From Candidatus Campbellbacteria bacterium RIFOXYC2_FULL_35_25 (GTDB lineage: Bacteria > Patescibacteriota > Minisyncoccia > Phycocordibacterales > UBA12079): a stretch of 64,000 nucleotides of DNA. Where the stretch lies: NCBI GenBank assembly GCA_001774495.1, contig MFAE01000014.1, forward strand, positions 10,573 through 74,572, in the 5' to 3' direction. Position 1 is the first letter of the stretch; each line of letters opens with the position of its first letter. Below, in pieces: positions 3,348-56,653 of this stretch. The translations under genes and the position numbers were made by a program. Below the pieces are notes generated by a model. That model saw only the letters and a list, made by a program, of their open reading frames with translations. It had not been told where the DNA came from and did not search any database.

Positions 3348-3419
3348 GGCGTAGTGGCGAAGTGGTAACGCTGTGGTTTGCAAAACCACCATGCGCCGGT
3401 TCGATTCCGGCCTACGCCT
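3348..3419 (+). tRNA. tRNA-Cys (GCA)
   Basis: Acceptor GGCGTAG/CTACGCC, anticodon loop TTGCAAA, T-arm GCCGGTTCGATTCCGGC, discriminator T. Confidence 0.85.
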
Positions 3420-3436
3420 CAGTTGTTCTTTAAATT

Positions 3437-3518
3437 GCCTAGGTGGCGGAATTGGTATACGCGCACGACTTAAAATCGTGTCTCTCACGGGATGCGGGTT
3501 CGACTCCCGCCCTAGGCA
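3437..3518 (+). tRNA. tRNA-Leu (TAA)
   Basis: Acceptor GCCTAGG/CCTAGGC, anticodon loop CTTAAAA, long variable arm, T-arm GCGGGTTCGACTCCCGC. Confidence 0.85.
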
Positions 3519-3900
3519 CATTAGAAATACTAAATATAATTTATTAAAAATTATATTTAGTATTTCTAATTCGTAAGTTGAGGGAGTCGAACAGAACTTT
3601 TTAAAAGCAAATTTCTTTGCTTTTAAAAAGTCCGAGGCTTCGGAGGAAAAAATTTTGATGTCGTTTCACGACCAAAAATTTTTGGAGGAGAAGGACTCCC
3701 GCCCTAGGCACATTAGAAACATTGAATATATTTTTTGTGGGGTATATTCAATGTTTCTAATCCGTAGGTTGCGGGAGTCGAACAGAACTTTTTAAAAGCA
3801 AATTTTTTTGCTTTTAAAAAGTCCGAGGCTTCGGAGGAAAAAGTTTTCTTTATCGCTTTGCGATTGAAAACTTTTGAGGGAGAAGGACTCCCGCCCTAGG
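3519..3900 (+). repeat. Two tandem ~190-nt structured units (3519-3710 and 3711-3900). Each ends with a direct copy of the tRNA-Leu 3' end (GGACTCCCGCCCTAGG, followed by CA in the first unit).
   Basis: Each unit has a ~50-nt perfect palindrome (cattagaaatactaaatataatttattaaaaattatatttagtatttctaat), then tcgtaag, then gagggagtcgaacagaac (the reverse complement of the Leu T-arm), then small hairpins, then the tRNA 3' copy. Confidence 0.7.
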
Positions 3901-3914
3901 AAAATTAGAAATAT

Positions 3915-3987
3915 CCGTTCGTAGCTCAGTTGGTAGAGCAACCGGCTCTTAACCGGTAGGTCGAAGGTTCGAACCCTTCCGAGCGGA
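3915..3987 (+). tRNA. tRNA-Lys (CTT)
   Basis: Acceptor CCGTTCG/CGAGCGG with one G-U pair, anticodon loop CTCTTAA, T-arm GAAGGTTCGAACCCTTC. Confidence 0.85.
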
Positions 3988-4181
3988 CAAGTGAGCCCTT
4001 TTTGGGCGAGCGCGGAAGTTCGGAGAAAAGCAAACAATTTTGCTTTTCGTAAGGGTTCGAACGACGGAACATGTCGAGCAGAGCGAGACAGTGAGTCGCG
4101 TCCAGTAGTACTTAAATTTTTACGAGCGAAGCGAAGTAAAAAGTTTAGTAACTATGGGACGAACCCTTCCGAGCGGACAAG
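3988..4181 (+). repeat. ~190-nt tRNA-linked element ending with a direct copy of the tRNA-Lys 3' end (GGGACGAACCCTTCCGAGCGGACAAG at 4156-4181)
   Basis: Contains ttcgtaagGGTTCGAACgacggaacatg (reverse complement of the Lys T-arm) and a core related to the Trp- and Ala-linked elements. Confidence 0.65.
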
Positions 4182-4566
4182 CGAGTCTTTATTAGATGAG
4201 CATAAAAAAAGTACAAAAACATTTATAAATTAAAAAATAATAAGTATGTCACAAGATCAATTGATAAAACTAGCATGCCAGGATTGTAAAAGGATTAATT
4301 ACTGGAGCAGGAAAAACAAAAAACTTGTCACCAAAAAGATAGAACTTAAAAAGTTTTGTAAGTGGTGTAAGAAGCAGACTAATCACAAAGAAGTTAAGAA
4401 ATAAACTTAAATTTAGCGCAGGGCTTTGTCGGTTTCAGAAAAATTTGTTTCACCGTATTTGTAATACGTTTCAAAAAATTTTTCCTTACCTCCTCGCCCT
4501 GCATCTAAATTAAAATTTATTTAACGATTTTGTAATTTGGTGATTGAAATTTGTTATTTTAAACAC

Positions 4567-4638
4567 TGGGTCTATAGTTTCAATGGTAAAACATCGGTTT
4601 CCAAAACCGCAGTTCGAGGTTCGAGTCCTCGTGGACCC
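4567..4638 (+). tRNA. tRNA-Trp (CCA)
   Basis: Acceptor GGGTCTA/TGGACCC, anticodon loop TTCCAAA, T-arm CGAGGTTCGAGTCCTCG, discriminator G. Confidence 0.8.
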
Positions 4639-4682
4639 GCAAAATAAAAGCCCCCTAAGGGGGCTTTTATTTTGCGGGTCCA
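4630..4682 (+). terminator. Perfect 25-bp inverted repeat with a 3-nt loop that incorporates the tRNA-Trp 3' acceptor strand; probable intrinsic terminator
   Basis: gtggacccgcaaaataaaagccccc taa gggggcttttattttgcgggtccac. Confidence 0.6.
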
Positions 4683-4692
4683 CAGCAAAGTG

Positions 4693-4870
4693 CCTGCGCA
4701 CTTTGCGTGAGGACTCGAACGGCGGAGACATGTTTTGCAAAGCAAAACAGTCGAGCCGCGTCCAGCGATACTTTGTAAATTTTGAGGTACGAAAAAATTT
4801 ACTTAGTAATCGCGGGACGAGTCCTCGTGAAAGTGCCTGCGCACTTTGCGTGAGGGCTCGAACGGCGGAG
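4693..4870 (+). repeat. tRNA-Trp-linked element. It ends with a direct copy of the T-loop/T-stem (GGGACGAGTCCTCGTG, 4814-4829) and is followed by a second partial copy of its 5' part (4830-4870).
   Basis: aaagtgcctgcgcacttt hairpin, then gcgtgaGGACTCGAACggcggagacatgttttgcaaagcaaaacagtcgagccgcgtccag; the hairpin plus gagggctcgaacggcggag is repeated at 4830-4870. Confidence 0.65.
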
Positions 4871-4940
4871 CAGTTTTGTGAATATAAAAAAGAGGTGTGC
4901 CCATCACGAGCACACCTCCTTGTTCTTAAACCCAGAGCCA

Positions 4941-5606: not shown

Positions 5607-5936
5607 CTAAGACCGGCTTTCCTTAGATATTTCATCAATCCTTTGCCTATTTTTTTCTCCTTTATCTATTTCAAAATCAAAAAAGGGAACTGATTTCATC
5701 TTTAATTTACTCTTTGCAAAACTCTTGAAGTCTTTCCTTTTTCTCTTTACGAAATTTAGCGCCGATTCTTCTCCAGCAGTTGGATAAACTGTTATAAAAA
5801 TTGTAGCACGTTTTAAGTCTTTTGAAACATCCGCGCTTGTAACCGTAATCAAAGAAGTATAGTTAGATTCGTTCTGCAAAAACTGTGCCGCCAAGCTCTT
5901 TAATAATTCTGTTACTTTTTCTTGTCTTTGGGTCAT
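5607..5936 (-). CDS. rbfA: Ribosome-binding factor A
   Basis: 109 aa starting MTQRQEKVTELLKSLAAQFL, a typical RbfA N-terminus; sits upstream of infB in the usual operon order. Confidence 0.8.
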   Translation of the reverse strand: MTQRQEKVTELLKSLAAQFLQNESNYTSLITVTSADVSKDLKRATIFITVYPTAGEESALNFVKRKRKDFKSFAKSKLKMKSVPFFDFEIDKGEKNRQRIDEISKESRS

Positions 5937-6026
5937 AAATTAGTTTTTAGTCTATAGTTTTTAGTTTTTAGATTTGGGAATTAAATTAAATATTAATAAT
6001 TTGTATTCTTATTAGAAATTTATTTT

Positions 6027-7562
6027 CTATTCTTCAACTACGATAAATGCTTCTAGTATATCTCCTGGGGCAATTTCTTTTTTTGATTCAACTACCGAGC
6101 CAAATTCTTCTCCTTCTCTAACTTCTTTGGTTTCGATTTTTTGAGACTGTAAACCAAGAACCTTTCCTTCTCCTATTTCATGCTCTCTTCTTGATATTTT
6201 AACTTTTGCACCGACAGAGATGGTTCCTTCTAATATTTTTCCTCCAATCACTTGCTTGTCTTTTGTTTGGCTAAAAATTCTTATTATTTTCGCCTTACCT
6301 ATAACTTTATTTGTCTTTACCTTGGGAGTTTTTTCTTTTATTTTTTCTTCTAACCACTCAGTCAATTTATATATTATATTGAAAGTATTTGTTTGAATTT
6401 TCATTTTCTCTGAAGAATCCTTGGCCTCTCTGTCTATTTTTACATTGAATCCAACTACGATAGTATTTGGGTCTCCTCCCGCTGTTTGGATATCATTTTC
6501 TGTTACATTTCCGACTCCCGCTTTAATTATTTTTACTGTAACTCGTTCATTTTTGATTTTCTCTATTTCGTGTTGAATTGCCTCTAGGGTTCCGAGAACA
6601 TCCACTTTTATGATTATTGGGATTATGGCTTTTTCTCCAGTAAAATCTGTTTCAGTGGCTCCCTGTTCTTTTGTCCCTTTGTTTTCTTTTATTTCTTTAC
6701 TTGCTATATATTCAAGTGCTTTTTTTTCAGCATCTTTTTTGGAACTGAAAGAATAAAAAGGGGAACCCACGGTGGGGATCTCCTTAAACCCTGTGACTTT
6801 TATTGGGCTCGAGAAAGAAGCTTCTTTTATTGGTTCGCCCAAGAAATTATTCATTGTCCTGACTGGTGCATATTTATCTTCGCAAACAATGAAAGAACCT
6901 GTTTTTAATGTTCCATCTTTAACCACCAAAGTAACACAAACTCCTTTTTTGGAATCGTGGTTGGCTTCAAGAACAATCCCTTCAGCTAATTTACTCTCAT
7001 CACTCCTTAATTCTTCCATTTCTGCCATTAAAAGGACGTTATCAAGCAATTCAGACACTCCTTCTCCTGTCTTGGCTGATATCGGGTTGTAGGGGATATC
7101 CCCACCATAACCTTCCAAATATATTTCATTTTCAATTAAGTTCTGTTTTACTTTCTCAACATTGGCTCCGGGTCTGTCTATTTTATTAATAGCCACAATA
7201 AAAGGAATCCCGGCTTCTTTTATGGACTTCAGAGCCTCTAGTGTTTGTGGCTTTGGTCCTTCTTCGGCTGATATGATAAGAATAGCAATATCAGCTATAT
7301 TTGCCCCTCTTAGACGCATAGCAGTAAAGGCCGCGTGTCCTGGGGTGTCGAGAAAAGTTATTTTTTTATTTTTTCCATCCTTGGTTTTATGGACAACTTC
7401 ATAGGCTGAAATATGCTGGGTAATTCCTCCCGCTTCTCCCTCAACAATATTTGATTTTCTTATGTAGTCTAGGAGGGCAGATTTTCCATGGTCAATATGC
7501 CCCATAATAGCAATTACAGGCGGTCTCTCAACAGTATTGTTTTTTTCTGCATTTTTATCCAT
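6027..7562 (-). CDS. infB: Translation initiation factor IF-2, short form (511 aa)
   Basis: G-domain motifs GHIDHGKS, DTPGH and NKID. Confidence 0.9.
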   Translation of the reverse strand: MDKNAEKNNTVERPPVIAIMGHIDHGKSALLDYIRKSNIVEGEAGGITQHISAYEVVHKTKDGKNKKITFLDTPGHAAFTAMRLRGANIADIAILIISAEEGPKPQTLEALKSIKEAGIPFIVAINKIDRPGANVEKVKQNLIENEIYLEGYGGDIPYNPISAKTGEGVSELLDNVLLMAEMEELRSDESKLAEGIVLEANHDSKKGVCVTLVVKDGTLKTGSFIVCEDKYAPVRTMNNFLGEPIKEASFSSPIKVTGFKEIPTVGSPFYSFSSKKDAEKKALEYIASKEIKENKGTKEQGATETDFTGEKAIIPIIIKVDVLGTLEAIQHEIEKIKNERVTVKIIKAGVGNVTENDIQTAGGDPNTIVVGFNVKIDREAKDSSEKMKIQTNTFNIIYKLTEWLEEKIKEKTPKVKTNKVIGKAKIIRIFSQTKDKQVIGGKILEGTISVGAKVKISRREHEIGEGKVLGLQSQKIETKEVREGEEFGSVVESKKEIAPGDILEAFIVVEE

Positions 7563-7601
7563 ATTATTTTTTTTGAAATGTGAAGCCTCTTCATAAAAGT
7601 A

Positions 7602-8069
7602 TTACTTACCTTTATTCAATTTCACCTTTTGCAAAACCTCTTTTTCTTCTCCTGACAACTCATGTTCACAAAGCCAATTCTTTATTGGTTTCGCAAAAAC
7701 ACTGACCTTTTCTCTAGAATAAAGACTTGATATAACAACTCCGTTTCCATTGTTGTCGATCATGGCTGTAGCAAAGCTTTGATTTCCGCCGATGCCATCT
7801 CCTTTGAAAGGATTAAATCTTACTGTTTCAATTCCTTGAATAGATTTGTCTATTTCTACATCTATACTTTGAATTTTATTATTTGTGGCATTCTTAAATT
7901 CATTTAGAATATTTGTATTTTTTTGAAGAGCTCCAATTTGGTCATTCAAATTCTGATTATTTTTTACAGAAGGAATGTTCTTAATTTTTACTTCAAGTCG
8001 AATAATCCACAAAATCAGTAAAAAACTGATAGCAATTAGGGAATAAATCATTATTTCTTCTGTTGACAT
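7602..8069 (-). CDS. Hypothetical membrane-anchored protein, possibly DUF4446-like
   Basis: N-terminal TM helix, coiled-coil, RFNPF..GNQSF..GNGVVISSLY segment. Confidence 0.45.
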   Translation of the reverse strand: MSTEEIMIYSLIAISFLLILWIIRLEVKIKNIPSVKNNQNLNDQIGALQKNTNILNEFKNATNNKIQSIDVEIDKSIQGIETVRFNPFKGDGIGGNQSFATAMIDNNGNGVVISSLYSREKVSVFAKPIKNWLCEHELSGEEKEVLQKVKLNKGK

Positions 8070-8145
8070 AACTATAAAAATTAACTTATATACTTAAAGA
8101 TTATACATTTTTAATGCTTTTTTGCAATTTTATGTAATTTATAAT

Positions 8146-8910
8146 TTATATTACTTCGATTGTGTAATTATAATTTGCGAAATGTTTTTCAACCATTTTT
8201 CTGAAATTCGGAGAATCTTGGGAAATTATAAATTTTAGTTCACCATCTCCAACATTATTATTAAACTTTGAGAGAGCGGTTTCGGCTACAACAGAAGCTG
8301 GGTCAAAGATTTCAACTTTTCTCCCAATTTTTTTAAAAGATTGCTCAAATTTATCTAGGAAGAAAGGATAGTGAGTACAACATAAAATAACCTTATCAAA
8401 ATTATCTTGGGAGACCCCTGTTGTTGCCTCATCGATTATTCTTTCAATTTCATTTTCATCTGCTCCAAATTCAATTGCTCCAGCTAACTCGGCAATCGGA
8501 AATGTTTTTATTTCTACGTTATGTTTTCTAAAATTTTCTTGGTATGCCCCTGACTCTATTGTGGCTGGTGTAGCAAAGATCAAGATTTCCCCAGAATGAT
8601 TTTTAAATTCTGATACGGTTGGGTTTATCATCTCAACTATTCCAAACGGAACATCCGACAAGAGTCCAATTTCTTCAAGAACCATAAAAGCGGAAACACT
8701 ATTGCAAGCGCTTAAAATATTTGTTGCCCCATTTTCAAGAAGTTTTTTTACTCCAAGAGCGGTTAATATTTTTAAATCGTCTTGCGTTTTTATTCCATAA
8801 GGAGCATTTTTTATATCACCAAAATAAACCACATCTGTTTGCGGAGATTTTTCTTTGAGAGCTTTTAAAACAGTAAGCCCTCCGATTCCTGAATCAAAAA
8901 TACCAATCAT
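8146..8910 (-). CDS. murI: Glutamate racemase
   Basis: IGIFDSGIGGLTV N-terminus and CTHYP motif. Confidence 0.85.
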   Translation of the reverse strand: MIGIFDSGIGGLTVLKALKEKSPQTDVVYFGDIKNAPYGIKTQDDLKILTALGVKKLLENGATNILSACNSVSAFMVLEEIGLLSDVPFGIVEMINPTVSEFKNHSGEILIFATPATIESGAYQENFRKHNVEIKTFPIAELAGAIEFGADENEIERIIDEATTGVSQDNFDKVILCCTHYPFFLDKFEQSFKKIGRKVEIFDPASVVAETALSKFNNNVGDGELKFIISQDSPNFRKMVEKHFANYNYTIEVI

Positions 8911-13513: not shown

Positions 13514-13587
13514 GGGCCAGTAGCTCAGTTGGCTAGAGCGCCTCATTTGCACTGAGGAGGTCGGGGGTTCGATTCCTCTCTGGTCCA
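13514..13587 (+). tRNA. tRNA-Ala (TGC)
   Basis: Acceptor GGGCCAG/CTGGTCC with the G3:U70 identity pair, anticodon loop TTTGCAC, T-loop TTCGATT. Confidence 0.85.
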
Positions 13588-13593
13588 CACAAC

Positions 13594-13632
13594 CAAAATA
13601 AAACACCATTTTTTTAGATGGTGTTTTATTTT
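13594..13632 (+). terminator. Palindromic rho-independent terminator after tRNA-Ala
   Basis: aaaataaaacaccat ttttttag atggtgttttatttt. Confidence 0.7.
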
Positions 13633-13639
13633 GTGTTGC

Positions 13640-13850
13640 TGTGCCAGAAGAAAGCAAACTGCTTTGCTTTCGTGAGGAATCGAAAGGCGGAATCATGTTT
13701 TGCGAAGCAAAACAGACGAGCCGGGGTCGCGAGCACTTAATAGATTTCGAGCCGAAGACGAAGAAATATATTTAGTGACTCGTGACCGATTCCTCTCTGG
13801 TCCATATTTTTACTTAGAACTGGGGACCGATTCCTCTCTGGTCCACCAAA
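13640..13850 (+). repeat. tRNA-Ala-linked element with two direct copies of the tRNA-Ala 3' end (GACCGATTCCTCTCTGGTCCA at 13784-13804 and 13825-13845)
   Basis: ctttcgtgaGGAATCGAAaggcggaatcatgttttgcgaagcaaaacagacgagccggggtcgcgagcactt; the core is homologous to the Trp-linked element. Confidence 0.65.
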
Positions 13851-34310: not shown

Positions 34311-35399
34311 ATGTTTTATCCGACGCTTAAAGTTGTTTCTAGTAATTGTAATTTAAGATGCGTTTATTGTTATTACAAAGGAATTCACAGAAAAAAACCA
34401 ATAAGGATGAATGATATAACTTTAAAGAGCATAATTCAAAAATTATTAGCACTTAGCGGCGAAGAGAAAGAAGTTCATTTTTACTGGCACGGAGGAGAGC
34501 CTCTTTTAGCCGGAATAGATTTTTATCAAAAGATTATTTTACTGGAAAATGAATTAAATGTGTATGGTAAGAAAATCTGTAACCATATTCAAACAAATGC
34601 CACTTTGTTAACCGATAATTGGGTAGATTTTTTAGTGGGCAATGATTTTAATGTTGGAATTAGTCTTGATGGTCCAAAAGAAATTCAAGACGTCAATCGG
34701 CCAACTATTTCTGGGGGAGGGAGTTTTGATTCTGTGATGAAAGGTTTGAAACTTTTTCAAGAAAGAGAAAAATTTCCTAGTATCATTTCGGTTGTAACCA
34801 ACGAATCCCTCGGTAATGCTAACAAAATCTTTGATTTTTTTGTTGAAAACAAAATTAAAAGATTTTTACCAAAGGATTGCTGTGAAAGAGATGAAACTGG
34901 TAAATTTCTTCCTTTTTCAACAACTCCCGATGAGTATGTTGATTTTTTGATTGAATTATTTGAGTGTTGGATGAGTAAAAACGATCCAACTATCGAAATT
35001 AGAAATCTCTACCAAATAATCAGGGGTGTTGTTGGAGGGAAGACAACCCTTTGTGAGTATAGTGGGAGGTGCCATTTGTTCTTGACGATTGAGTATGATG
35101 GAACAATTGGCGGTTGTGACAGTTTCCCTGTAAAAAATTATCCAATGGGGAACATAAATGATTCCGCTGTTAGCAGTATTTTCGGGAGTCATGGTTATAA
35201 ATCTTTTTTAAGGGATATGGAATCAACAAGATTAGACTGTCACCATTGTGAGTGGTTTGGCAATGTTTGTGGTGGTGGGTGTTTGGGTCATTCCTATTCC
35301 GAACAAAATTCTGCTTGGGGGAAAAATATTTTTTGTACTCCCAAAAAGAGACTCTTTGAATATATAAAAAGAAGAGTCTCCGAAATACAAAATAATTGA
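34311..35399 (+). CDS. Radical SAM enzyme with C-terminal SPASM domain (anSME-like peptide/protein maturase)
   Basis: CNLRCVYC radical-SAM cluster, WHGGEPLL, auxiliary clusters CEYSGRCH and CHHCEWFGNVCGGGC. Confidence 0.8.
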   Translation: MFYPTLKVVSSNCNLRCVYCYYKGIHRKKPIRMNDITLKSIIQKLLALSGEEKEVHFYWHGGEPLLAGIDFYQKIILLENELNVYGKKICNHIQTNATLLTDNWVDFLVGNDFNVGISLDGPKEIQDVNRPTISGGGSFDSVMKGLKLFQEREKFPSIISVVTNESLGNANKIFDFFVENKIKRFLPKDCCERDETGKFLPFSTTPDEYVDFLIELFECWMSKNDPTIEIRNLYQIIRGVVGGKTTLCEYSGRCHLFLTIEYDGTIGGCDSFPVKNYPMGNINDSAVSSIFGSHGYKSFLRDMESTRLDCHHCEWFGNVCGGGCLGHSYSEQNSAWGKNIFCTPKKRLFEYIKRRVSEIQNN

Positions 35400-40725: not shown

Positions 40726-40847
40726 ACTAAAATTATACCTTAAAACCTTTTATCGTAGAATGTTAAAGAGGGGATATTTATTAATTTTTTATCTGTTTTC
40801 GAAACAAAACCCCAAAAACCTTTGTTGAATTAAATTTTCTTTTATTT

Positions 40848-40977
40848 AAAAAAATGTTTAGCTGGAGCGGGGGATTAAAGAGAAAACCGTTGACATACAG
40901 GTCTGTTCTGTTACCATTAAGTCGATAGTTCTTAGGTAGTTTGCCTGTAATCTTTGGAAAAAAAGGAGGTGGTAAAA
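40848..40977 (+). promoter_or_regulatory. Promoter/leader cassette P1: G-rich box, TTGACA-16-TACCAT, conserved ~45-nt leader, SD AGGAGGTGGTAA
   Basis: tgtttagctggagcgggggattaaagagaaaaccgTTGACAtacaggtctgttctgtTACCATtaagtcgatagttcttaggtagtttgcctgtaatctttgg..aaggaggtggtaa. Confidence 0.6.
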
Positions 40978-41139
40978 GTGAAAGAGTTGTTGGGTAACAA
41001 CGGAGAAAGAGGAACCCCTTTCCTGTTAGGGTTTCTTGAGAAGATTGAGGTTCCACCAACTGGCTCAGCAAATTGCGCCACATATGTTGGAGCCACCCCA
41101 ACTCCAAGCGGAGACGCTTACGATTACGATCAAGATTAA
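40978..41139 (+). CDS. 53-aa small protein (GTG start) KELLGNNGERGTPFLLGFLEKIEVPPTGSANCATYVGATPTPSGDAYDYDQD
   Basis: Driven by cassette P1; SD 6 nt upstream; bidirectional terminator at ~41165-41215. Confidence 0.4.
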   Translation: MKELLGNNGERGTPFLLGFLEKIEVPPTGSANCATYVGATPTPSGDAYDYDQD

Positions 41140-42334: not shown

Positions 42335-43651
42335 TTGATTTTAAAACAAAATGTTAGTATTATTATAACAATGAGTATTTTAAATACATTTAATGTAGTT
42401 CGCTTTGAGAAAAAGCTTAGAAATGGCATTAAGGTTGTTTTATTTTACCGTCCCGGATCTCCCATTACAACACATGCTGTGCTTAATTCTGGCTCAAGAT
42501 TTGACCCTGTAGGTATGTTTGGGGTTGCTCATTTTTTGGAACATCTTGTGGTTGGAGGGTCAGCAGAATTTCCTACTAAAGATTTACTTGCTGAACACAT
42601 CGAATCAATCGGGGGGAGTTTTGGAGCAAGGACAGGTCAGGACTCTTTAATTATTGCAACAGAGGTTCCAGACAAATCTGATTATGGCAGGGTAGTCGAC
42701 ATCTTTAAAGCAACTCTTTGTGAGCCATTGATAGATAAAAAATTTTTTGAAAATGAAAAAAAGGTTGTTGTAAAAGAAGTTAATAGAAGTAATTCAAATC
42801 CTGCTCAGGTTTTAATTAAGACCTGCCGAGATTTATTTTTTAAGGGAACTTCTTTTTCACACGAGGTTCTCGGTGATGCGGAGAGTATTCAGGAACTTGA
42901 TTATGAAAAAGTTGTTGCTATCCATAAAAGAATGTTTGATAAAACAAGGATTACTTTTATCGTATCAGGAGATATTTCTATTGAAGAGCTTGTTTTAAAT
43001 TTAGAAAAACTTAATTTTTTAGAAGGGAATGATTTTTTTGAAAAAAGTTATGAACCTAAGGTTATTTATGAAAAGAGGATTTCATCTTCCCCCCTTGATA
43101 TTCCTCAAACATATATCTGTTTTGGGATTCCGGCACCTAAGCTGTTTAGCAAAGAGTTAGTCCATTTGAATCTAGCGGGAGACATACTAGCCGGTGGTCG
43201 CTCTTCTCGGTTAACAAAGCGTCTTCGTTATGATAAAGGGCTTGTTTACGGTGTAAGATACGGCAGAGTTGGTGGTTTAGAGCTTGGTTTTTGGGGATTT
43301 TTTACTGACACAGCAAGCGAGAATGTTAATGATTTGATGAGTGAAATTTCTGAGGAAATAAAAAATATTAGAACTAATGGAATTAAAGCCTCTGAATTAG
43401 AGTTTGTAAAAAACAAAAATATAAAGTCTCTTAAACGGACGATGCAAACATCAAATAGTTGGGTAGATTTTCATAATCTTTCAGAAGCGTTTTCATCAGA
43501 ACCTTATGATATAGATAATTTCGCAAAATATATTGAGGAAGCAACAGTAGAAGATATTGAAAATATTATTAATAAATACTTTCAAACAAACAATTGGAGA
43601 TTAGCTACTTGTGGGAAAACAGAAGAAGAATCCGTGATTTATAAAATATAG
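42335..43651 (+). CDS. M16-family (pitrilysin-like) zinc peptidase
   Basis: Inverted zinc motif HFLEH (HxxEH). Confidence 0.65.
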   Translation: MILKQNVSIIITMSILNTFNVVRFEKKLRNGIKVVLFYRPGSPITTHAVLNSGSRFDPVGMFGVAHFLEHLVVGGSAEFPTKDLLAEHIESIGGSFGARTGQDSLIIATEVPDKSDYGRVVDIFKATLCEPLIDKKFFENEKKVVVKEVNRSNSNPAQVLIKTCRDLFFKGTSFSHEVLGDAESIQELDYEKVVAIHKRMFDKTRITFIVSGDISIEELVLNLEKLNFLEGNDFFEKSYEPKVIYEKRISSSPLDIPQTYICFGIPAPKLFSKELVHLNLAGDILAGGRSSRLTKRLRYDKGLVYGVRYGRVGGLELGFWGFFTDTASENVNDLMSEISEEIKNIRTNGIKASELEFVKNKNIKSLKRTMQTSNSWVDFHNLSEAFSSEPYDIDNFAKYIEEATVEDIENIINKYFQTNNWRLATCGKTEEESVIYKI

Positions 43652-49069: not shown

Positions 49070-49171
49070 GTCTAGTAAAATCGTTGACAGATTAAGCAAC
49101 TTTGTTACTATTAAGTTGATAGCTCTTAGGTAGTTTGTCTGTAATCTTTTGAAAGAAAGGAGGTGGTAAGA
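49070..49171 (+). promoter_or_regulatory. Promoter/leader cassette P2 (TTGACA, conserved leader, AGGAGGTGGTAA)
   Basis: tcgTTGACAgattaagcaactttgttactattaagttgatagctcttaggtagtttgtctgtaatcttttg..aggaggtggtaag. Confidence 0.55.
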
Positions 49172-49298: not shown

Positions 49299-49940
49299 AT
49301 GAAAAAAATACCATTTTATTCTAATTTAAAAGATAATAATCATTGCATCCAAGCTTGTTTGAAGATGGTTATTAAGTATTACTTTCCAGCAAAAAATTAC
49401 TCTTTTAAAGAGTTAGACAAAATGTCAAAACATAAAAAAGGAATGTGGACTTGGCAGGGAGCTTCTTTGCTCGCTCTCGCAGATATGGGTCTTGAAGTTG
49501 TAAATATTGAAAATATAGATTACAAAAAATTTGCTGAGCAGGGGGAAATGTATTTACAAAATATTTGGAGTGAAGAGGTTTTTGCAACACAAGATAAATA
49601 TTCAGATTTAAAGCAAGAAAAGAAAATTGCACAAAAAATGGTTGAGAGTAAAAAAATGAAATTGGCAAATAGGGATGCAAAATTTTCTGATGTTGAGGGT
49701 TATTTTGCCAAGGATTATTTGGTTTTAGTTTCTGTGAATCCTTGTGTTTTTGAAAATAAAAAGTGTTATTGGAGTCACATTGTTTTAATTACCGATATAA
49801 ATGACCGCTGGGTCACATTTCATGATGTCGGTTTACCTCCTGTCGAAAATAGAAAAATCAGTAGAAAAATTTTTGAAAAAGCGATGACTAAACCTTGGAA
49901 AGAGGACACTAATGTCATTGCTTTAAAATATGAAAAATAA
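49299..49940 (+). CDS. Papain-like cysteine peptidase, C39-like (bacteriocin-processing type) domain protein
   Basis: NNHCIQACLKMVIKYY (Cys nucleophile context) and HIVLITDINDRWVTFHDVG (His context); tool start at 49185 lies upstream of the likely ATG at 49299. Confidence 0.45.
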   Translation: MKKIPFYSNLKDNNHCIQACLKMVIKYYFPAKNYSFKELDKMSKHKKGMWTWQGASLLALADMGLEVVNIENIDYKKFAEQGEMYLQNIWSEEVFATQDKYSDLKQEKKIAQKMVESKKMKLANRDAKFSDVEGYFAKDYLVLVSVNPCVFENKKCYWSHIVLITDINDRWVTFHDVGLPPVENRKISRKIFEKAMTKPWKEDTNVIALKYEK

Positions 49941-49982
49941 AAACTGTTGTTGGTTTAGATTTTTTTTATTTTAATTATATTT

Positions 49983-50110
49983 AAAAAATGTTTAGCTAGG
50001 GTGGGTGATTATGCAAAACCGTTGACATACAGGTCTGTTCTGTTACCATTAAGTCGATAGTTCTTGGGCAGTTTTCTTTAATCTCTTGTGAAGAAAAGGA
50101 GGTGGTAATA
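49983..50110 (+). promoter_or_regulatory. Promoter/leader cassette P3 (G-rich box, TTGACA-16-TACCAT, leader, SD)
   Basis: tgtttagctagggtgggtgatt..ccgTTGACAtacaggtctgttctgtTACCATtaagtcgatagttcttgggcag..aaggaggtggtaa. Confidence 0.6.
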
Positions 50111-50302
50111 GTGGGTTGGTTTACTGGAAACAGTGACGATGGATCAAAGGTGAAGGTTACGGATTCTGGGGATACTCACAAGACGGAAAAGATATCTTCC
50201 TCTGACCGTCCTCATTCTCATGACATCGTGAAGATTGATAAGCCCTCAGGATCTGTGAAGGAAATAAGTATTGGGCCTAATGCTTCACGAAGAGGCAAGT
50301 AA
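50111..50302 (+). CDS. 63-aa hydrophilic small protein (GTG start)
   Basis: Driven by cassette P3; hairpin terminator gacacagccctcacggctgtgtt. Confidence 0.35.
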   Translation: MGWFTGNSDDGSKVKVTDSGDTHKTEKISSSDRPHSHDIVKIDKPSGSVKEISIGPNASRRGK

Positions 50303-50410: not shown

Positions 50411-51637
50411 ATGAAAGCCCCATTCCAAAAAAAAGACAATGACTTATATGTCGTTAATTTCCCTCAAAAAACCAAGGATATTTTTTTTGATATTTATCTG
50501 AGAACTGGTTATTCTGAAGAATCAAATAATGAGTTTGGTATTGGCCATTTGCTAGAACATTATTTGGTAGAATCTCTAACTGATAATATGAAATTTGTTA
50601 ATGGTTCTACTGGACAAGATTTTACCAATTATTATTTACAGTCAGATTCTAAAAGAATAGTAAAAGATGTTAAAATTTTTTTGAATACTATTTTAAATTC
50701 AAATTTTAGCGACGAGAAATTATTTAAAAGAGAAAAAGAAGTAATTGAAAATGAAATTCGCAACAAAAAAAATATTAAAGAAGAATCTCTTAATTTTATT
50801 TTAAAAAAATTTTTTGGTAGTAATTTCCCCTACGCTAGAGAAAAAGTAAATCAAATTTCAAATATTAAAAAATTCAAATTTGGCGATATTAAGAAACACC
50901 ATAATAAGATTTTTTGTAGCGGAAATATTTTTTTTGTTCTTTCTGGTTTTAATATTGATGGGAAAATGGAAAATAATATTTTAAATATTATTAAAGAACA
51001 TAAACTTGCTAAAATTAAAAAAAATAAAAGAATAGAGTATTCTTTTTCGGGGGAAAAGTTTGTTAAAAACTCAAAATATTACTGGAATGACGAATTGATA
51101 GTTAATGTTTCTTTTGATTTTTCGAAGAAAATTAGAAAAAATACAAAAAACATAAAAGCTATAAACATGCTTAGAAAATATTTTGAAGATTTAGATTTTT
51201 ATTGTGCAAAAAATATGAGAGATTTGGGGATCTACTCTAGTTCTTTCGAATGGATGATTTGGGATAACGCGGGAATAGTTATTTTGTCTTCTATGTTAAA
51301 TGGAGGGAAGGCGAATATTATTTTGGGAGAGTTTTTAAAATTTTTAGAAAAAGTTAAAAAAGATGGAATTTCAAATGGCGATTTAGTCAAATTGAGGAGA
51401 AAAGAAAAAGAGGGGCTTACCAAAGCCTTCGGGAATAATGCAAGAAGATTAAGTTGGGTTGTAAATGATTTGCTCTCCTATGGCGATGTGACTTTATTAA
51501 AAGATGATATTAAAGAATTAAAGAGTATTGATTCCAATTATATAAAAAAAATTGCTAAAAAACTTTTTGATTTTGATAAGATGAATATAACTATCTTAGG
51601 AAAGGATGCTGGAAAGACTAAAATTAAACTGGACTAA
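50411..51637 (+). CDS. M16-family zinc peptidase
   Basis: HLLEH (HxxEH). Confidence 0.6.
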   Translation: MKAPFQKKDNDLYVVNFPQKTKDIFFDIYLRTGYSEESNNEFGIGHLLEHYLVESLTDNMKFVNGSTGQDFTNYYLQSDSKRIVKDVKIFLNTILNSNFSDEKLFKREKEVIENEIRNKKNIKEESLNFILKKFFGSNFPYAREKVNQISNIKKFKFGDIKKHHNKIFCSGNIFFVLSGFNIDGKMENNILNIIKEHKLAKIKKNKRIEYSFSGEKFVKNSKYYWNDELIVNVSFDFSKKIRKNTKNIKAINMLRKYFEDLDFYCAKNMRDLGIYSSSFEWMIWDNAGIVILSSMLNGGKANIILGEFLKFLEKVKKDGISNGDLVKLRRKEKEGLTKAFGNNARRLSWVVNDLLSYGDVTLLKDDIKELKSIDSNYIKKIAKKLFDFDKMNITILGKDAGKTKIKLD

Positions 51638-51654
51638 ATAATTTTAATTATATT

Positions 51655-51796
51655 TTTAAAAATGCTTGGTTGGAGTGGGGTATTAAAGAGAAAACCGTTG
51701 ACACAAGTAGTCGTTTTGTTATTATTAATGGGATAGTACTTTGTTTTTCGGTTCTAATTTTACAATTGGATATTTCCAAAAAAGGAGGTGGTGATC
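51655..51796 (+). promoter_or_regulatory. Promoter/leader cassette P4 (G-rich box, TTGACA, longer leader, SD aaggaggtggtga)
   Basis: tgcttggttggagtggggtattaaagagaaaaccgTTGACAcaagtag... Confidence 0.55.
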
Positions 51797-51959
51797 TGTG
51801 AATATCCCCGAAATAATGGTAACGGGTATTAACCCAGGTAAAAAACCCACTGGCTTTTATCTTGATGTTTCGCAAGGTTATAATGAATGTGAAAATGATA
51901 ATTGCGGTGGCGGTTTTGGGGATTGCTCTGATTGTGGAGCTGATCCAGATCCAAACTAA
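51797..51959 (+). pseudogene. Cysteine-rich small peptide gene with an apparent frameshift at the A-run at 51899-51901. The GTG-initiated frame stops at 51929-51931; the Cys-rich end (NCGGGFGDCSDCGADPDPN) is in the adjacent frame.
   Basis: Removing one A from gataaattgc would give the continuous 53-aa product NIPEIMVTGINPGKKPTGFYLDVSQGYNECENDNCGGGFGDCSDCGADPDPN; a sequencing error or a genuine frameshift. Confidence 0.3.
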
Positions 51960-52072
51960 TTATCAAATTGTTTTTAAGCACCTTATCCCTGATACAATTG
52001 GGGATGAGGTGTTTTTTGTGGTAATATACTTAATAATATAATGTCTAAAGTTAATAATTTTTAAATAAAAAT

Positions 52073-52696
52073 ATGAAATTTAATATATATTATTCCATTG
52101 ATTTTGATGTTGATCGGGTCTTAGAAACTATAAATAAATTTGAATGGTTTAAATCCAATAATTATAGTGTAATTTTACCTAAATACCTTGATTTATCTGA
52201 TATAAAAAAAATAACAAAAGAGGATGTCAAAAAAGTAATACTAAAAGAATATAACGAGCAAGATTATTTAAAACAAAAAGAGTATTTAGAAAATAATTTA
52301 GAAAAGTTGATATTAAATGAAAATATTGAAGAAAAAATTAAAAGCACAACCCTTGTTTTATCAAAAGACTATAATATCTATTTTACAAAATATGGTGTTG
52401 GTGGGAGTTACCATTTGCCAAATAAAATAGTAATAAACATAAATCGTTGTTTCGAATTTGGTTTACTTAGGACGATAATTCATGAAATTATTCATCTCTC
52501 AATCCAGCTTTTTGTTGAAAAATATAATATTAATCATTGGACAAAAGAAAGATTGGTTGATTTGTTATTTGATAAATTTGCTCCCAAAATAAATAAAATT
52601 CAAACGATTTCTATTGATACAAATTTAATTGATGAAAGTTTTGAAAAAAATTATCCAAATGTAGAAAAAATAATAAGTGAGATAAGAGAAAAATAG
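52073..52696 (+). CDS. HExxH motif protein (putative metallopeptidase)
   Basis: RTIIHEIIHLSIQ. Confidence 0.4.
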   Translation: MKFNIYYSIDFDVDRVLETINKFEWFKSNNYSVILPKYLDLSDIKKITKEDVKKVILKEYNEQDYLKQKEYLENNLEKLILNENIEEKIKSTTLVLSKDYNIYFTKYGVGGSYHLPNKIVININRCFEFGLLRTIIHEIIHLSIQLFVEKYNINHWTKERLVDLLFDKFAPKINKIQTISIDTNLIDESFEKNYPNVEKIISEIREK

Positions 52697-52861
52697 TATT
52701 GTTCGGTGAAATTTATTTTTTTTAACTCTTTCCTTGACTCTTATTAGTGTTTTTTGATATCCTTTTCTAGGAGGTATGGTGATGTTTATATTTTAGTTCT
52801 TTAAAATAAAACTCATTAATTAAGCAATATACAAAGATTTACAGACAAAAGGAGATAAGCA

Positions 52862-53908
52862 ATGACTGCTATAAGAAAAGTAGATCAAAACAATGAAATT
52901 ATTCCCCGCTCCGCTTGGATAACAGTTAATCGTGCTTGCAATTTTCGTTGTAGCGGATGCTATGCTAAAAATACAGGGTATGGTTTAAAGCAAAGCATGA
53001 GTTTTGAACTTTCAAAAAAGATCGCAAACCTTGTTTCATCGTTAGGGATTTCAAGAATTACAATAATTGGAGGAGAACCTACTTTATGGAATAATTTATC
53101 TAATTTCAATAAATTTTGTATAGATAAAGGTTTGCAAACTAGAATTGTTACAAATGCAATGAGATTTGGAGATGATAATTTTTGGTTAGATTATACAAAA
53201 AGCCCAAATACAAGAGCCGGAGTATCTATAAAAGCTTTTGATAAGAAAAGCTTAAAGGATATTACGGGAATTGATTCATTTGAATTTGTTAAAAAAGGTT
53301 TGCAGAGAGCTATTTCACATTTTAAATGTGGGGTTAGCACTGTTTATTCTACAACTTCGGCTAGTCATATACTTAATATTACTAAATTCGCTATGGATTG
53401 TGGGGCAAAAAGTATAAGTATAAGCCCTTGTACGCCAAGATTTTGTAATGGAAAAGTAGACGGCGCTTATGTTGTAGAGCCAGTAGCAATGACAAAACAT
53501 CTTATTAAAATCTATCCAAAACTTGTTGAGATCACTAATGGTAATATTGTATTTTTAATGAAATTACCTCTGTGTTTGTGGCCGGATGATTTTGTTAAAA
53601 ATCTAATAGAGGAAAATCAAATTAACACTATTTGCCAATTACAACATAGGAGTGGCATTATTTTTGATGTTGATGGAAAACTTATGTTATGTAATAGTCT
53701 TTTCGATTACCCTGTTGGTAAATATGGGGTTGATTTTTTTAACAAAAAATCGTTAATTGCTTTATTAAACAACCGGAAGACTCTTGATGTTTATGATAGG
53801 TTAACATCTTATCCATCAAAAAAATGTATGAATTGTAATCGTTACGATGTTTGTGCCGGTGGATGTCCTTTATTTTGGGCTCTTTTTGACCCAGAAAGTT
53901 TAATTTAA
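52862..53908 (+). CDS. Radical SAM enzyme with C-terminal SPASM-like cysteine cluster
   Basis: CNFRCSGCY, IIGGEPTL, C-terminal CMNCNRYDVCAGGCP. Confidence 0.75.
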   Translation: MTAIRKVDQNNEIIPRSAWITVNRACNFRCSGCYAKNTGYGLKQSMSFELSKKIANLVSSLGISRITIIGGEPTLWNNLSNFNKFCIDKGLQTRIVTNAMRFGDDNFWLDYTKSPNTRAGVSIKAFDKKSLKDITGIDSFEFVKKGLQRAISHFKCGVSTVYSTTSASHILNITKFAMDCGAKSISISPCTPRFCNGKVDGAYVVEPVAMTKHLIKIYPKLVEITNGNIVFLMKLPLCLWPDDFVKNLIEENQINTICQLQHRSGIIFDVDGKLMLCNSLFDYPVGKYGVDFFNKKSLIALLNNRKTLDVYDRLTSYPSKKCMNCNRYDVCAGGCPLFWALFDPESLI

Positions 53909-54011
53909 TTTTTTTAACACGAAAAAATTACTGATCAAAAATAAAGAAGGGTGGCTTTTGCTACCCTTCTTATTTTTTATACATTTTTATGTATAATATA
54001 CTCACAAAAAC

Positions 54012-56288
54012 ATGTCAGATAAAAATATTTTTAGAATAGGGAAGGGGCTTGTTGGGCTTTGGATAATCATAACCGTTGTTTTTTCTTTTTTTGTGATGAT
54101 GGGTTTTTTTGTAAGTATTCCCCAAGCTTCGATGGATCCTAAACACGAGATATTTGTCGCTCAGGAAAGAATAGATAAAGAGTTTCCTAATTCCGTCCAT
54201 CCTATACCTTTTGTGATATTAGGGGAAAATGGGGAAGACGTGCTTACAAAAGATGTTTTAGCAGAACTATACGAGAAGAGTCAGTCTTTAAGAGTCTCTG
54301 AATTAGGAAAAGAATATTTAAATGATTTTGCTCTTCCATTTTTGGGGAACACAGGGACTTTGGGATTATTTTCTCTCGCAGATATCACAGAATCTTTTTT
54401 AAACAAACAAGGTTCTTCATTAAAAGAAGCCACAGACGGTGAGGTAAAAAATGCTATTAGCATTTTGTTGGAAGACCCTCAGTACGGGAGTTTTCTTCAA
54501 GCTCAATTATCGAGTGAGGCTGAGTTTAAAAACGGAGAATGGCTTTCTCCCACTCTCGCTTTTTTTGTTAGTGCTAATAATGAGAAATTGGGTGGAGGGG
54601 TTTTTAGACGGACAGTTGGTGGTGACGAGGTCATGTTAGAAAAAGAAGAGTTTAACAGAAAGATAGAAGCTTCTCTCCAAGGAGAAAATTATAAACTTTT
54701 AGGGATCGGGATTGATCTCAATATTGAATCTGAAGAAGAGGGATATTCTCCTTCAATTTTAATTTTAATTTCTACGCTTTTGTTTACCTTGGCTATTTTT
54801 ACAGGCGTTCTATTTTCATCATTTCGTCTATTTTTACTCACTATGTTTGGTTTGCTCAGTGTTTTCATTTGGGTGAGAGGTTTTCCTCTTGCTACCTTTG
54901 GTTTGGTGAAGCCGTCTCTGACTACTGATGTAATTCTTCCAATCGCATTTATGTCGTTTGGTGTTGATTTTTTAATTCATGTCGTTCACCAGTACAAAGA
55001 AAAGTTAAAAACTTCTAGCCAGGGTTTTGAAAAATCTTTTATAGAGTCGTTTAGAAAAGTAAATCTAGCCCTTTTCTTGGCGATGTTTACTACCGCGATA
55101 GCTTTTGCTGCTAATTATGTTTCTAGTGTTGAGGCGGTTAAGGCTTTTGCGATAACGGGTTTCTTTGCTTCATTTGCTTCTTATTTCATTATGGGAATGA
55201 TTATTCCTTTTTTGTTTGCACTTTGGGAAAAAGATAAAACAAGCTCTAAAAGCTATCAACTAAAAACTAAAAACTATTTTAATATGGGAGCTTTAATGAA
55301 CTCTGTAATAAAAAATAAAAGCTTTGTCGTTATTTTATTATTTATAGCAACAGTTTTCTTTGGTTCAAATGTGTTCTTGGTAGAAAAAAGTCTTGATCCT
55401 ATAGATTTCATAAATTCAGAATCTAATTTTGTCGTCAGCTTAGACCAGCGTGATATTCATTATGGTGATACTCGGGGGGAAGAGGCTTCAATTTATATTA
55501 AAGGAAATTTCACTGATGCCAAGGTTCAAAGAGCGTTAGAAGATATTTTGGTTTTATTAAACAATAATTCTTATTTAGCTCATACTAAAGAAGGACAGTT
55601 GGTTTTGCCTTATGGTCTTCCAGAGGTCAACAAAATTGATGAGGAAACCTATTCTGAGAGAATTATTTTTGAAGTTATAGGAACAAGAGAGCAAAAGACA
55701 GTGAAGGAAGCTTTTGCAAGTTTAGAGTCAGACTTAAAAGTCTTTGACGGGATTGCTTCTTACGAGATAGTCGGGTCTCCATTTACAAGAGACGCCAGCT
55801 TAGAGGCTGTTACTGATTCATTGATAAGTACAATTATTACAGCATTGTTAATAATCTTTCTCGTTCTTTTGATTGTATTTCGCTCTTTCTTCTACGCCAT
55901 TATTACTCTTATTCCTATGCTTTTGGTTGTTGTTTGGATTTATGGATTAATGGGAATTTTTAATCTTTCACTCAATTTTATTACAGCCACCGTCGCAGCG
56001 GTTTCTTTGGGAGTGGGGATTGATTATTCAGTTCACCTCGTTCAGAGATTCAGACAAGAATACAAAAAAGAGATTTCTTTTGAAGAGACCCTAATGAGAG
56101 TTGGAAAGACAACAGGGTTTGCTCTTTTTGTTTCCGCTTTATCTAGTACTATTGGCTTTATGTTTCTTGCTCAAGCTCAAATGCCACTTTTTGCAACTTA
56201 TGGATTATTAGCAACTGCGATGATAATTTTTTCTTTCTTTGCTACTTTTTTTGTTCTCCCTCTTCTCCTCGCTTTAAAAAAGAAATAA
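54012..56288 (+). CDS. MMPL/RND-superfamily membrane transporter (two 6-TM bundles, 758 aa)
   Basis: Duplicated polytopic hydrophobic blocks separated by large soluble loops. Confidence 0.55.
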   Translation: MSDKNIFRIGKGLVGLWIIITVVFSFFVMMGFFVSIPQASMDPKHEIFVAQERIDKEFPNSVHPIPFVILGENGEDVLTKDVLAELYEKSQSLRVSELGKEYLNDFALPFLGNTGTLGLFSLADITESFLNKQGSSLKEATDGEVKNAISILLEDPQYGSFLQAQLSSEAEFKNGEWLSPTLAFFVSANNEKLGGGVFRRTVGGDEVMLEKEEFNRKIEASLQGENYKLLGIGIDLNIESEEEGYSPSILILISTLLFTLAIFTGVLFSSFRLFLLTMFGLLSVFIWVRGFPLATFGLVKPSLTTDVILPIAFMSFGVDFLIHVVHQYKEKLKTSSQGFEKSFIESFRKVNLALFLAMFTTAIAFAANYVSSVEAVKAFAITGFFASFASYFIMGMIIPFLFALWEKDKTSSKSYQLKTKNYFNMGALMNSVIKNKSFVVILLFIATVFFGSNVFLVEKSLDPIDFINSESNFVVSLDQRDIHYGDTRGEEASIYIKGNFTDAKVQRALEDILVLLNNNSYLAHTKEGQLVLPYGLPEVNKIDEETYSERIIFEVIGTREQKTVKEAFASLESDLKVFDGIASYEIVGSPFTRDASLEAVTDSLISTIITALLIIFLVLLIVFRSFFYAIITLIPMLLVVVWIYGLMGIFNLSLNFITATVAAVSLGVGIDYSVHLVQRFRQEYKKEISFEETLMRVGKTTGFALFVSALSSTIGFMFLAQAQMPLFATYGLLATAMIIFSFFATFFVLPLLLALKKK

Positions 56289-56401: not shown

Positions 56402-56653
56402 TCAATGCCCAGCAGTACATTTCAGCGGGCAATTATTACTCTTAGGGAAGATGCTCCCACATTTGATGCACTGCAACTTGTTTCCTGGACTTAGCAGATT
56501 CCTCCCGTCGGTTCTTCCTTTTTTGCATACTGGGCAAAAAGCTTGTTCTGCTTTTATTCCAGAAAAAGTTAGACGACAATGAGGACAAAAAATCCTCTCT
56601 AAACTACTAGGCCATTCGCCGATTATTCTTATTGTTGTTCCTGTCACAACCAT
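56402..56653 (-). CDS. Small zinc-ribbon protein (4x CxxC) in a GC-richer patch
   Basis: CPHC..CPVC..CIKC..CPLKC; SD aaggaggtagcaaATG. Confidence 0.45.
   Translation of the reverse strand: MVVTGTTIRIIGEWPSSLERIFCPHCRLTFSGIKAEQAFCPVCKKGRTDGRNLLSPGNKLQCIKCGSIFPKSNNCPLKCTAGH

Follow-up and report, generated by a model that had tools for sequence, protein, structure and literature searches.

What does a 53-codon, cysteine-rich open reading frame (ORF) encode when it is followed on the same strand by an HExxH protein, a radical S-adenosylmethionine (radical-SAM) enzyme and a large transporter: a disabled precursor beside its maturation and export genes, or a working peptide-modification system, and if the latter, which of the neighbors belong to it? 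The question is raised by positions 51,797 to 56,288 of a 64,000-nucleotide stretch of DNA (contig MFAE01000014.1; henceforth the window, to which all unlabeled coordinates refer) from Candidatus Campbellbacteria bacterium RIFOXYC2_FULL_35_25, a parcubacterial member of the Candidate Phyla Radiation (CPR) from the Rifle aquifer. A preliminary description had interpreted the locus as a complete gene set of the RiPP (peptide made on ribosomes and modified after translation) type with a frameshifted precursor and an exporter of the MMPL family. We found instead that the precursor gene is intact, and that the radical-SAM/SPASM enzyme, together with the peptide and the HExxH protein, forms a trio that is co-conserved across distant lineages. 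With a probability of roughly 0.6, we interpret the locus as an intact, conserved three-gene radical-SAM peptide-modification module, for which we infer thioether chemistry, leader removal by the HExxH protein and the transcriptional logic set out below.

The precursor gene and the radical-SAM/SPASM enzyme

The precursor gene (51798..51959, + strand) is one ORF of 53 codons with a GTG start; both the ORF listing and direct translation yield the product VNIPEIMVTGINPGKKPTGFYLDVSQGYNECENDNCGGGFGDCSDCGADPDPN* with zero internal stops. The TGA at 51929-51931, which had been read as a premature end of the peptide, is real but out of frame (offset 2), spanning the in-frame codons TCT GAT. The in-frame codons near 51897-51905 are GAT AAT TGC, and it is at this point that the earlier translation slipped frame. 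Moreover, the 162-nt DNA of the ORF is letter-identical in six contigs that were assembled independently of one another (L001-L006; ENA, JGI and Logan), on which gene callers predict an intact product of 53 or 47 residues; the contigs that carry the locus include the record ANAN16-1 and further environmental metagenome assemblies. Since the frame is singly open and its DNA is the same in all six assemblies, there is neither a homopolymer sequencing error nor a recent inactivation, the two explanations that had been offered for the supposed frameshift, and the gene is intact.

Translation of this ORF is preceded by a perfect Shine-Dalgarno sequence, AAGGAGGTGGT, at 51782-51792. The GTG at 51798 lies 9 nt after its GGAGG, while an alternative ATG (51816) would be 27 nt away; further, homologous peptides (MHALPEMFVTGV...) align across the residues upstream of that ATG. 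On account of this spacing and of the coverage by homologues, GTG is the more likely start codon. Upstream, the block termed cassette P4 (51636..51797, + strand) comprises a conserved upstream block, a -35 element, an extended -10 element and the Shine-Dalgarno sequence. Its promoter-like site at 51698-51725 consists of TTGACA (51698-51703), a 16-nt spacer and an extended -10, TGtTATTAT, ending at 51725. With 11 of 12 matches and the upstream TG, it is the top site in the 49.9-57 kb interval in a promoter scan, in keeping with the earlier placement of a promoter cassette before the GTG ORF. An Rfam scan recovered only tRNAs, with the P4 cassette matching no riboswitch or RNA family. Directly 3' of the peptide gene is a terminator-like hairpin (51976..52014, + strand) with an 18-bp stem and a T-run. 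A terminator scan found 12 such sites in the region as against 3.2 expected.

Within the precursor, approximately residues 1-30 (NIPEIMVTGINPGKKPTGF...) constitute the leader, which is followed by the core CENDNCGGGFGDCSDCGADPDPN with four Cys and six Asp/Glu residues. Each Cys of this core has an Asp 1-5 residues downstream (C-EN-D, C-GGGFG-D, C-S-D and C-GA-D).

The radical-SAM enzyme (52862..53908, + strand; 348 residues), which the preliminary description had rightly recognized together with its SPASM-like CMNCNRYDVCAGGC tail, is recovered above cut-off by both the radical-SAM model PF04055 (58.2 bits vs cut-off 29.5) and the SPASM model TIGR04085 (30.4 vs 27). The CX3CX2C motif, CNFRCSGC, occupies residues 26-33, and its cysteines (C26, C30 and C33) are invariant in 36 homologues. 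Eight further cysteines are conserved, namely 190, 238, 258, 277, 322, 325, 331 and 335, of which the last six form the SPASM pattern C258-x13-G-x4-C277 ... C322-x2-C-x5-C-x3-C335. The canonical last SPASM Cys is missing, the enzyme ending 13 residues past the CxxCx5Cx3C element; nevertheless, the conserved cysteines are predicted to be enough for two auxiliary Fe-S clusters. As the CX3CX2C motif begins already at residue 26, the enzyme has no N-terminal RiPP recognition element (RRE) domain. In the profile alignments, the first aligned residue is 136 in SuiB, 97 in CteB, 112 in SkfB and 14 in anSME. In the AlphaFold2 model (mean predicted local distance difference test score, pLDDT, 91.7) a disordered segment, residues 1-9, leads straight into the core barrel.

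Comparison of this model with solved structures using Foldseek placed anSME and SuiB nearest (TM-score 0.65-0.70, 17-19% identity), followed by DesII, CteB, SkfB and PqqE, while the best profile matches in the Protein Data Bank (PDB) were SuiB (4.5e-13) and CteB (1.2e-10), with SkfB also among the best. Among the nearest folds, anSME, SuiB, CteB, SkfB and PqqE are all enzymes acting on peptides or proteins. The closest of these is anSME (Foldseek E 1.7e-12, TM-score 0.66), which acts on a Cys in a polypeptide and shares with the window enzyme its size, its radical-SAM and SPASM regions and the lack of an RRE; however, the two are only 18-19% identical and, in lieu of the missing last SPASM Cys, the window enzyme conserves C190 and C238 upstream. 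The systems of SCIFF/CteB, AlbA and SkfB resemble the window locus in that a short precursor with a Cys-rich C-terminal core adjoins a SPASM/twitch radical-SAM enzyme. Yet CteB, SuiB and SkfB have an N-terminal RRE-type extension of about 100 residues, which the window enzyme lacks, and no SCIFF model matches the peptides.

None of the curated equivalog models reaches its cut-off with the window enzyme (PapB 43.5 vs 340; anSME 56.1 vs 349.45; MftC 42 vs 265), and none does so with five homologues from other phyla, including Firmicutes, Bacteroidales and Myxococcales. Despite its low score, the window enzyme can be aligned over the full length with the PapB model (NF047865), and the homologues score 51-71 with that model; the SCIFF maturase model TIGR03974 was listed for a single homologue, that of the myxococcal locus L023 (47.9 vs 425). 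The choice between a maturase and a cofactor-biosynthesis enzyme, on which the preliminary description had hinged its interpretation, thus comes out as follows: the curated models assign the enzyme to no cofactor-biosynthesis clade and also to no curated maturase family. These comparisons place it in a SPASM clade of its own, as yet unclassified, with polypeptide-acting enzymes as the nearest relatives of solved structure.

Conservation of the trio across distant lineages

At least 221 proteins are strong homologues of the enzyme. A scan with one genome per species recovered about 37 full-length relatives with 27-57% identity; the closest relative, from locus L007, is 64% identical. Within the CPR the hosts are Saccharibacteria, Vogelbacteria, Nealsonbacteria, Kuenenbacteria, WWE3 and unclassified Parcubacteria/Patescibacteria. 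Outside it they include Lachnospiraceae, Erysipelotrichaceae, Christensenellaceae, Bacillales, Paludibacteraceae, Muribaculaceae, Myxococcales, Gammaproteobacteria and Nitrospirae. A word-indexed protein search with the 53-residue peptide retrieved only itself and one relative; the precursors were recovered by six-frame ORF listing around each relative of the enzyme.

This procedure revealed that nearly every locus has a same-strand ORF of 36-65 residues, usually starting within about 100 nt of the stop codon of the enzyme. Related peptide ORFs therefore adjoin even distant homologues of the enzyme, which was the comparison called for by the preliminary description. The peptides share a leader plan, M-x-K/E-L-x-E-L, followed by (V/S)TG(I), then P-x-G-hydrophobic and about 10 further residues. 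In contrast, their cores are hypervariable in both length and sequence, with an overall composition of 28.9% Cys, 19.5% Asp and 11.8% Gly; the X of the CxC motifs in these cores is Asp in 28 of 59 cases. In a strict adjacency test, which demanded an ORF on the same strand, no more than 450 nt away, with four or more Cys and a CxC in its last 32 residues, 20 of 35 non-redundant loci passed, against 0.028 expected per locus as estimated from flanking DNA. The failures are mostly real peptides with CxxC cores or 2-3 Cys, or else reflect the rearranged gene order of the window itself, and one is due to a contig end. Judging by eye from the peptide lists, a plausible precursor is present in about 29 of the 35 loci.

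Two individual loci depart from the common layout. In L007, two tandem precursors are present, one with a core beginning exactly as that of the window (NECENDNCGGGFGDCSDCG...); here (5730-8689) a Transposase_mut gene abuts the radical-SAM gene, the tandem precursors come after it, and there is no adjacent HExxH protein. In the myxococcal L023 (5980-8126), we observed two tandem radical-SAM paralogues with no obvious precursor.

The HExxH protein is the third recurrent element. Clear homologues of it come after the peptide in 13 fetched loci, of which 11 are non-redundant, and divergent HExxH proteins of 194-285 residues take the same position in seven more, such that a small HExxH protein is found in about 20 of the 35 non-redundant loci overall. 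The type of leader tracks the subtype of the HExxH protein: subtype A goes with VTGI leaders, subtype B with LYKG...MICDCD peptides and subtype C with KKLL...CGSQ peptides. This co-variation fits a direct recognition of the peptide by the HExxH protein. The usual gene order is enzyme-peptide-HExxH, while that of the window is peptide-HExxH-enzyme. Taken together, the genes for the precursor, the small HExxH protein and the SPASM enzyme are co-conserved as a trio across distant lineages.

Some of the type-B loci have additional neighbors: in L039 (8956-11957) and L043 (9205-10875) a histidine kinase with a seven-transmembrane (7TM) receptor region (HisKA_7TM) is encoded 1-2 genes past the trio, and L039 also has a carboxyl methyltransferase of the ICMT family. 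These contexts hint at signaling or C-terminal methylation in the type-B subfamily.

Proposed maturation and its alternatives

The HExxH protein gene (52073..52696, + strand), found on the same strand downstream of the peptide as had been noted previously, encodes a stand-alone protein of 207 residues that stays below the cut-off of every Pfam and NCBIfam family. Its profile likewise retrieved nothing meaningful from the PDB sequences. Among 37 aligned sequences H137, E138, H141, E159, D163 and the strand motif TKYGVGGSY are invariant. The structural model (pLDDT 94.9) has a zincin fold, with the HExxH on helix 129-151 and the invariant E159, 17 residues downstream, on the next helix (155-169). 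In this model, the HExxH motif with a Glu on the following helix is a gluzincin-like arrangement with a predicted metal site. An exhaustive profile search gathered 905 clusters (50% identity), 649 of them at E<=1e-10, and the 150 best matches listed are almost all stand-alone proteins of about 200-230 residues. By these searches, the protein belongs to a large, uncurated family.

Based on these features, the following pathway can be proposed for the window. The strong sigma-70-type promoter and the perfect ribosome-binding site would produce an abundant mRNA for the 53-residue precursor, with the hairpin at 51976-52014 limiting read-through into the HExxH and enzyme genes; as such, we infer that it acts as an attenuator, by which the peptide mRNA would exceed the enzyme mRNA. 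The leader of about 30 residues would present an N-terminal hydrophobic stretch, VTGI and P-T-G-F, ahead of the core rich in Cys and Asp. Given that it has no RRE domain, the SPASM enzyme, with one SAM cluster and cysteines for two auxiliary clusters, is expected to bind the leader directly and then to modify the core. This modification would install thioether cross-links, in which a hydrogen is abstracted from an acceptor (C-beta of Asp as in PapB, or an alpha-carbon) that is then joined to the sulfur of a Cys. Subsequently, the HExxH zincin would remove the leader, and the MMPL transporter may or may not take part in export.

Thioether cross-links are probably the modification made by this enzyme. 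They are the leading candidate because Cys is the sole universal feature of the cores, because Asp lies near each Cys of the window core and because PapB offers a precedent: it links the sulfur of Cys to C-beta of Asp and tolerates CX0-6D motifs (PMC9413430). Thus, the Asp spacing in the window core matches the tolerance of PapB, the chemistry in the window itself being predicted by this analogy. The PapA/PapB (freyrasin) system further resembles the locus in combining a radical-SAM/SPASM enzyme with a leader-bearing peptide whose core is dominated by Cys and Asp. Against this, the window core is without a repeated unit of the CSANDA type, many CxC cores of the trio family have little Asp, and the trio includes a small HExxH partner. 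The term thioether-type used in the preliminary description is a reasonable guess.

Several observations weigh against the three-gene module as we propose it. First, the enzyme lies far under the cut-off of every characterized maturase family, the PapB and anSME models included, so that the thioether assignment rests on analogy and core composition. Second, some cores have little or no Asp, e.g., CGGACGACGACGAC and CQCRCANCKCNC, and hence Asp cannot be the universal acceptor. Third, about a third of the loci, mainly those from Firmicutes, are without any HExxH partner. Finally, there is no exporter conserved next to the trio.

The alternative that survives best, which we regard as possible though clearly unlikely, is that the HExxH protein is an Fe(II)/alpha-ketoglutarate (alpha-KG)-dependent tailoring oxygenase that beta-hydroxylates Asp or other core residues, with the leader being cut by another protease such as the M16-like or C39-like proteins encoded near the trio in the window. 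Enzymes of the alpha-KG-HExxH type, formerly mis-annotated as metallopeptidases, are indeed fused or adjacent to radical-SAM/SPASM maturases and hydroxylate Asp, His, Gln and Pro (PMC12636437; PMC13060819). The trio thus shares with such systems (the ChlB/FxsB-type triceptides, PflC and PesO) the pairing of a SPASM maturase with a zincin-like HExxH protein; besides, Asp, a known target of their hydroxylation (PMC12636437; PMC13060819), makes up 20% of the family cores, and an M16 peptidase is encoded directly upstream in the window. Nevertheless, the window protein has no match to the defining model of the alpha-KG-HExxH domain (TIGR04267/IPR026337) at E<=0.01, and neither do ten members of the three HExxH subtypes, even at E<=1. 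It is also a much smaller, stand-alone protein, its 207 residues comparing with 342 in the solved 8s5f chain of that domain. Among its 37 members, the recurrent weak Pfam matches, all below threshold, are to hydrolytic zincins (SprT-like in 11, Peptidase_MA_2 in three and DUF6782 in two), and the invariant Glu that follows the second His by 17 residues on the next helix is in the gluzincin position. Further, the precursor in the window is Cys-rich and without the aromatic cyclophane motifs of the ChlB/FxsB-type triceptides, and most loci have no other protease adjacent to the trio. The oxygenase chemistry needs O2, while many of the host organisms are anaerobic fermenters. On balance, these features favor a peptidase over an oxygenase role, and leader peptidase is the most likely function of the HExxH protein.

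A somewhat less probable alternative concerns the product rather than the HExxH protein: it might be a redox or metal-binding peptide that stays inside the cell or associated with it, comparable to metallothioneins or chalkophores, with the enzyme performing some other Cys chemistry or stabilizing the scaffold. The CxC/CxxC repeats at 29% Cys do resemble those of metal-binding peptides, the absence of a conserved exporter beside the trio and its retention in many reduced CPR genomes would suit such a role, and a TonB-dependent receptor adjoins the locus L012. On the other hand, the hypervariability of the cores in length and sequence is typical of secreted bioactive peptides rather than of cofactors, and the 7TM histidine kinases near two loci fit signaling better. 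The same hypervariability makes a cofactor-type pathway unlikely. Precursors of cofactors such as PqqA and MftA have fixed cores. Like the trio, the PQQ and mycofactocin systems combine a peptide with a metallopeptidase and a SPASM radical-SAM enzyme and are without a dedicated exporter; however, their cores are strictly conserved, the PqqE and MftC models remain far below their cut-offs, and the window locus has no PqqB, PqqC, PqqD or MftB-type partner genes.

The original proposal of a recently inactivated, frameshifted precursor in a complete peptide-maturase-exporter set, with the MMPL protein as its dedicated exporter, is very improbable. The transporter gene itself (54012..56288, + strand) was correctly described: it encodes a 758-residue MMPL/RND (HAE3-like) protein recovered by PF03176 (67.5 vs cut-off 20.5) and, below cut-off, by the HAE3 model TIGR00921 (135.9 vs 351.9). 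It starts 104 nt past the radical-SAM gene, with which it shares the strand, and this synteny is kept in all assemblies of the strain. Apart from the absence of the frameshift, two observations speak against its membership. Between the two genes lies a terminator-like hairpin (53944..53971, + strand) with a 12-bp stem and a T-run, after which a TATAAT-like -10 box (around 53990) precedes the ATG of the MMPL gene. Moreover, iterative searches of all ORFs of 91 loci found no MMPL homologue adjoining the trio in about 35 other loci, and Pfam scans found no recurrent transporter among the downstream genes in seven other loci. The genes downstream are instead heterogeneous, encoding an S9 peptidase, a TonB-dependent receptor, DprA, a DUF2268 protein and, in two loci, the 7TM histidine kinases. 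The MMPL protein is accordingly unsupported as a dedicated exporter: of the complete RiPP-like set, the peptide and the maturase stand, co-conserved with the HExxH protein across distant lineages, while the exporter lacks such support.

That there is no peptide-modification system at all, the enzyme acting like anSME on a protein or a small molecule encoded or made elsewhere and the small ORFs arising by chance, is hardly credible: although anSME is the best Foldseek match with the same RRE-less architecture and is among the best full-length NCBIfam alignments, its model stays far below cut-off, its sulfatase-type target motif (C/S-x-P/A-x-R) is absent from the dedicated 53-residue peptide, that peptide is served by a strong promoter, a ribosome-binding site and a terminator of its own, and leader motifs with Cys-rich cores are shared across phyla well beyond the chance expectation of the adjacency test.

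Genomic neighborhood and biological significance

The cassette upstream of the precursor is one of exactly four near-identical copies in the window, P1-P4, all on the + strand (40828-40980, 49080-49155, 49962-50112 and 51636-51797), each combining CGTTGACA, an extended -10 and AAGGAGGTGGT before a different small ORF; in three of the four copies, conservation extends some 40 nt further upstream from the -35. The small ORFs are MKELLGNNGERGTPFLLGFLEKIEVPPTGSANCATYVGATPTPSGDAYDYDQD after P1 (40978-41139), the Gly-rich mini-ORF MSGNGGNHQGGGTGGGGGGRKQ after P2 (49153-49221), a 63-residue peptide with GWFTGNSDDG... after P3 (50111-50302) and the radical-SAM precursor after P4 (51798-51959). A P-[ST]-G motif is common to the P1, P3 and P4 peptides. 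These features suggest that P1-P4 constitute a co-regulated set of small peptides. After the P2 mini-ORF and a hairpin comes a stand-alone protein of about 213 residues (49300-49940), with weak, sub-threshold similarity to Peptidase_C39 and C39-like (DUF3335) domains.

Directly upstream of promoter P4 is a gene for an M16-family peptidase-like protein (50411..51637, + strand; 408 residues) with an HLLEH motif, recovered by PF00675 (28.1 vs cut-off 22.3). It is the second of two M16-like genes lying 8 kb apart, the other being at 42335-43651; the two are distantly related (phmmer E 3.9e-07). Pairs of M16 proteins serve as leader peptidases in some modified-peptide clusters (PMC13060819). Synteny of the gene with the trio extends to L004, a contig of a sister strain; outside this strain, the same 91-locus searches found no M16 homologue adjoining the trio, and its membership in the system is, like that of the MMPL gene, unsupported. 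Starting at 50386, a short distance before the M16 gene, the contig L004 matches the window at 99.8% identity. In its first part (1-2963), unrelated genes, including one for a PilM-like protein, replace the P1-P3 cassette region found upstream of 50386. Either the break marks the edge of a replacement at the strain level or the assembly is chimeric there.

Other features of the window lie farther from the trio. A second radical-SAM ORF (34311-35399) has CNLRCVYC at residue 13 and shows no relationship to the first in phmmer at E<=1e-3. It is situated inside a region (23.4-36.6 kb) of repeated intergenic cassettes of 141-182 nt belonging to the repeat families D1-D4, and is probably the other thioether-type locus to which the preliminary description alluded. 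Between the MMPL gene and an AstE-like gene, an 83-residue ORF on the - strand (56402-56653) is rich in CPxC/CxxC and zinc-ribbon-like; it comes with a Shine-Dalgarno sequence of its own and with a promoter-like site, TTGACA-17-TAATAT, at 56750-56722. In a cluster of tRNAs (Cys, Leu, Lys and Trp, with Ala further on) at 3348-4890 and 13514-13712, the genes are interspersed with direct repeats some 190 nt long and with repeats of a 73-nt family (D6, D9, D12 and D13).

By its sequence features, the trio resembles the ranthipeptide and sactipeptide systems while falling outside any curated maturase family, and neither the peptide nor the HExxH protein has a curated family. Our literature searches, directed at ranthipeptides of CPR/Patescibacteria and at Cys-rich radical-SAM peptides, returned genome-mining surveys and general reviews but no description of the trio within the searchable literature. 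A gene reported as a pseudogene thus turns out to be intact and to be part of a module that pairs an unclassified SPASM enzyme with a member of a large uncurated HExxH family. The module is compact (about 2 kb), which makes its direct synthesis and expression feasible, and both the chemistry of the core and the choice between protease and oxygenase are readily testable. Conceptually, a widespread system of this kind in the CPR is unsurprising.

CPR/Patescibacteria have genomes of about 1 Mb, and to our knowledge very little secondary metabolism is known from them. Despite these small genomes, the trio is kept across many CPR lineages, and it is also found in gut Firmicutes and Bacteroidales. 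A bolder interpretation, which we offer tentatively and consider improbable as a whole, is that the trio represents a new class of modified peptides characteristic of the CPR/Patescibacteria, in which an RRE-less SPASM enzyme would perform an undescribed Cys chemistry on cores rich in CxC and Asp, for example building dense networks of thioether or other sulfur-to-carbon bonds, and the HExxH protein would be a minimal new branch of peptidases or oxygenases. The metal-binding or signaling product of such a system may then mediate the interaction between these episymbionts and their hosts.

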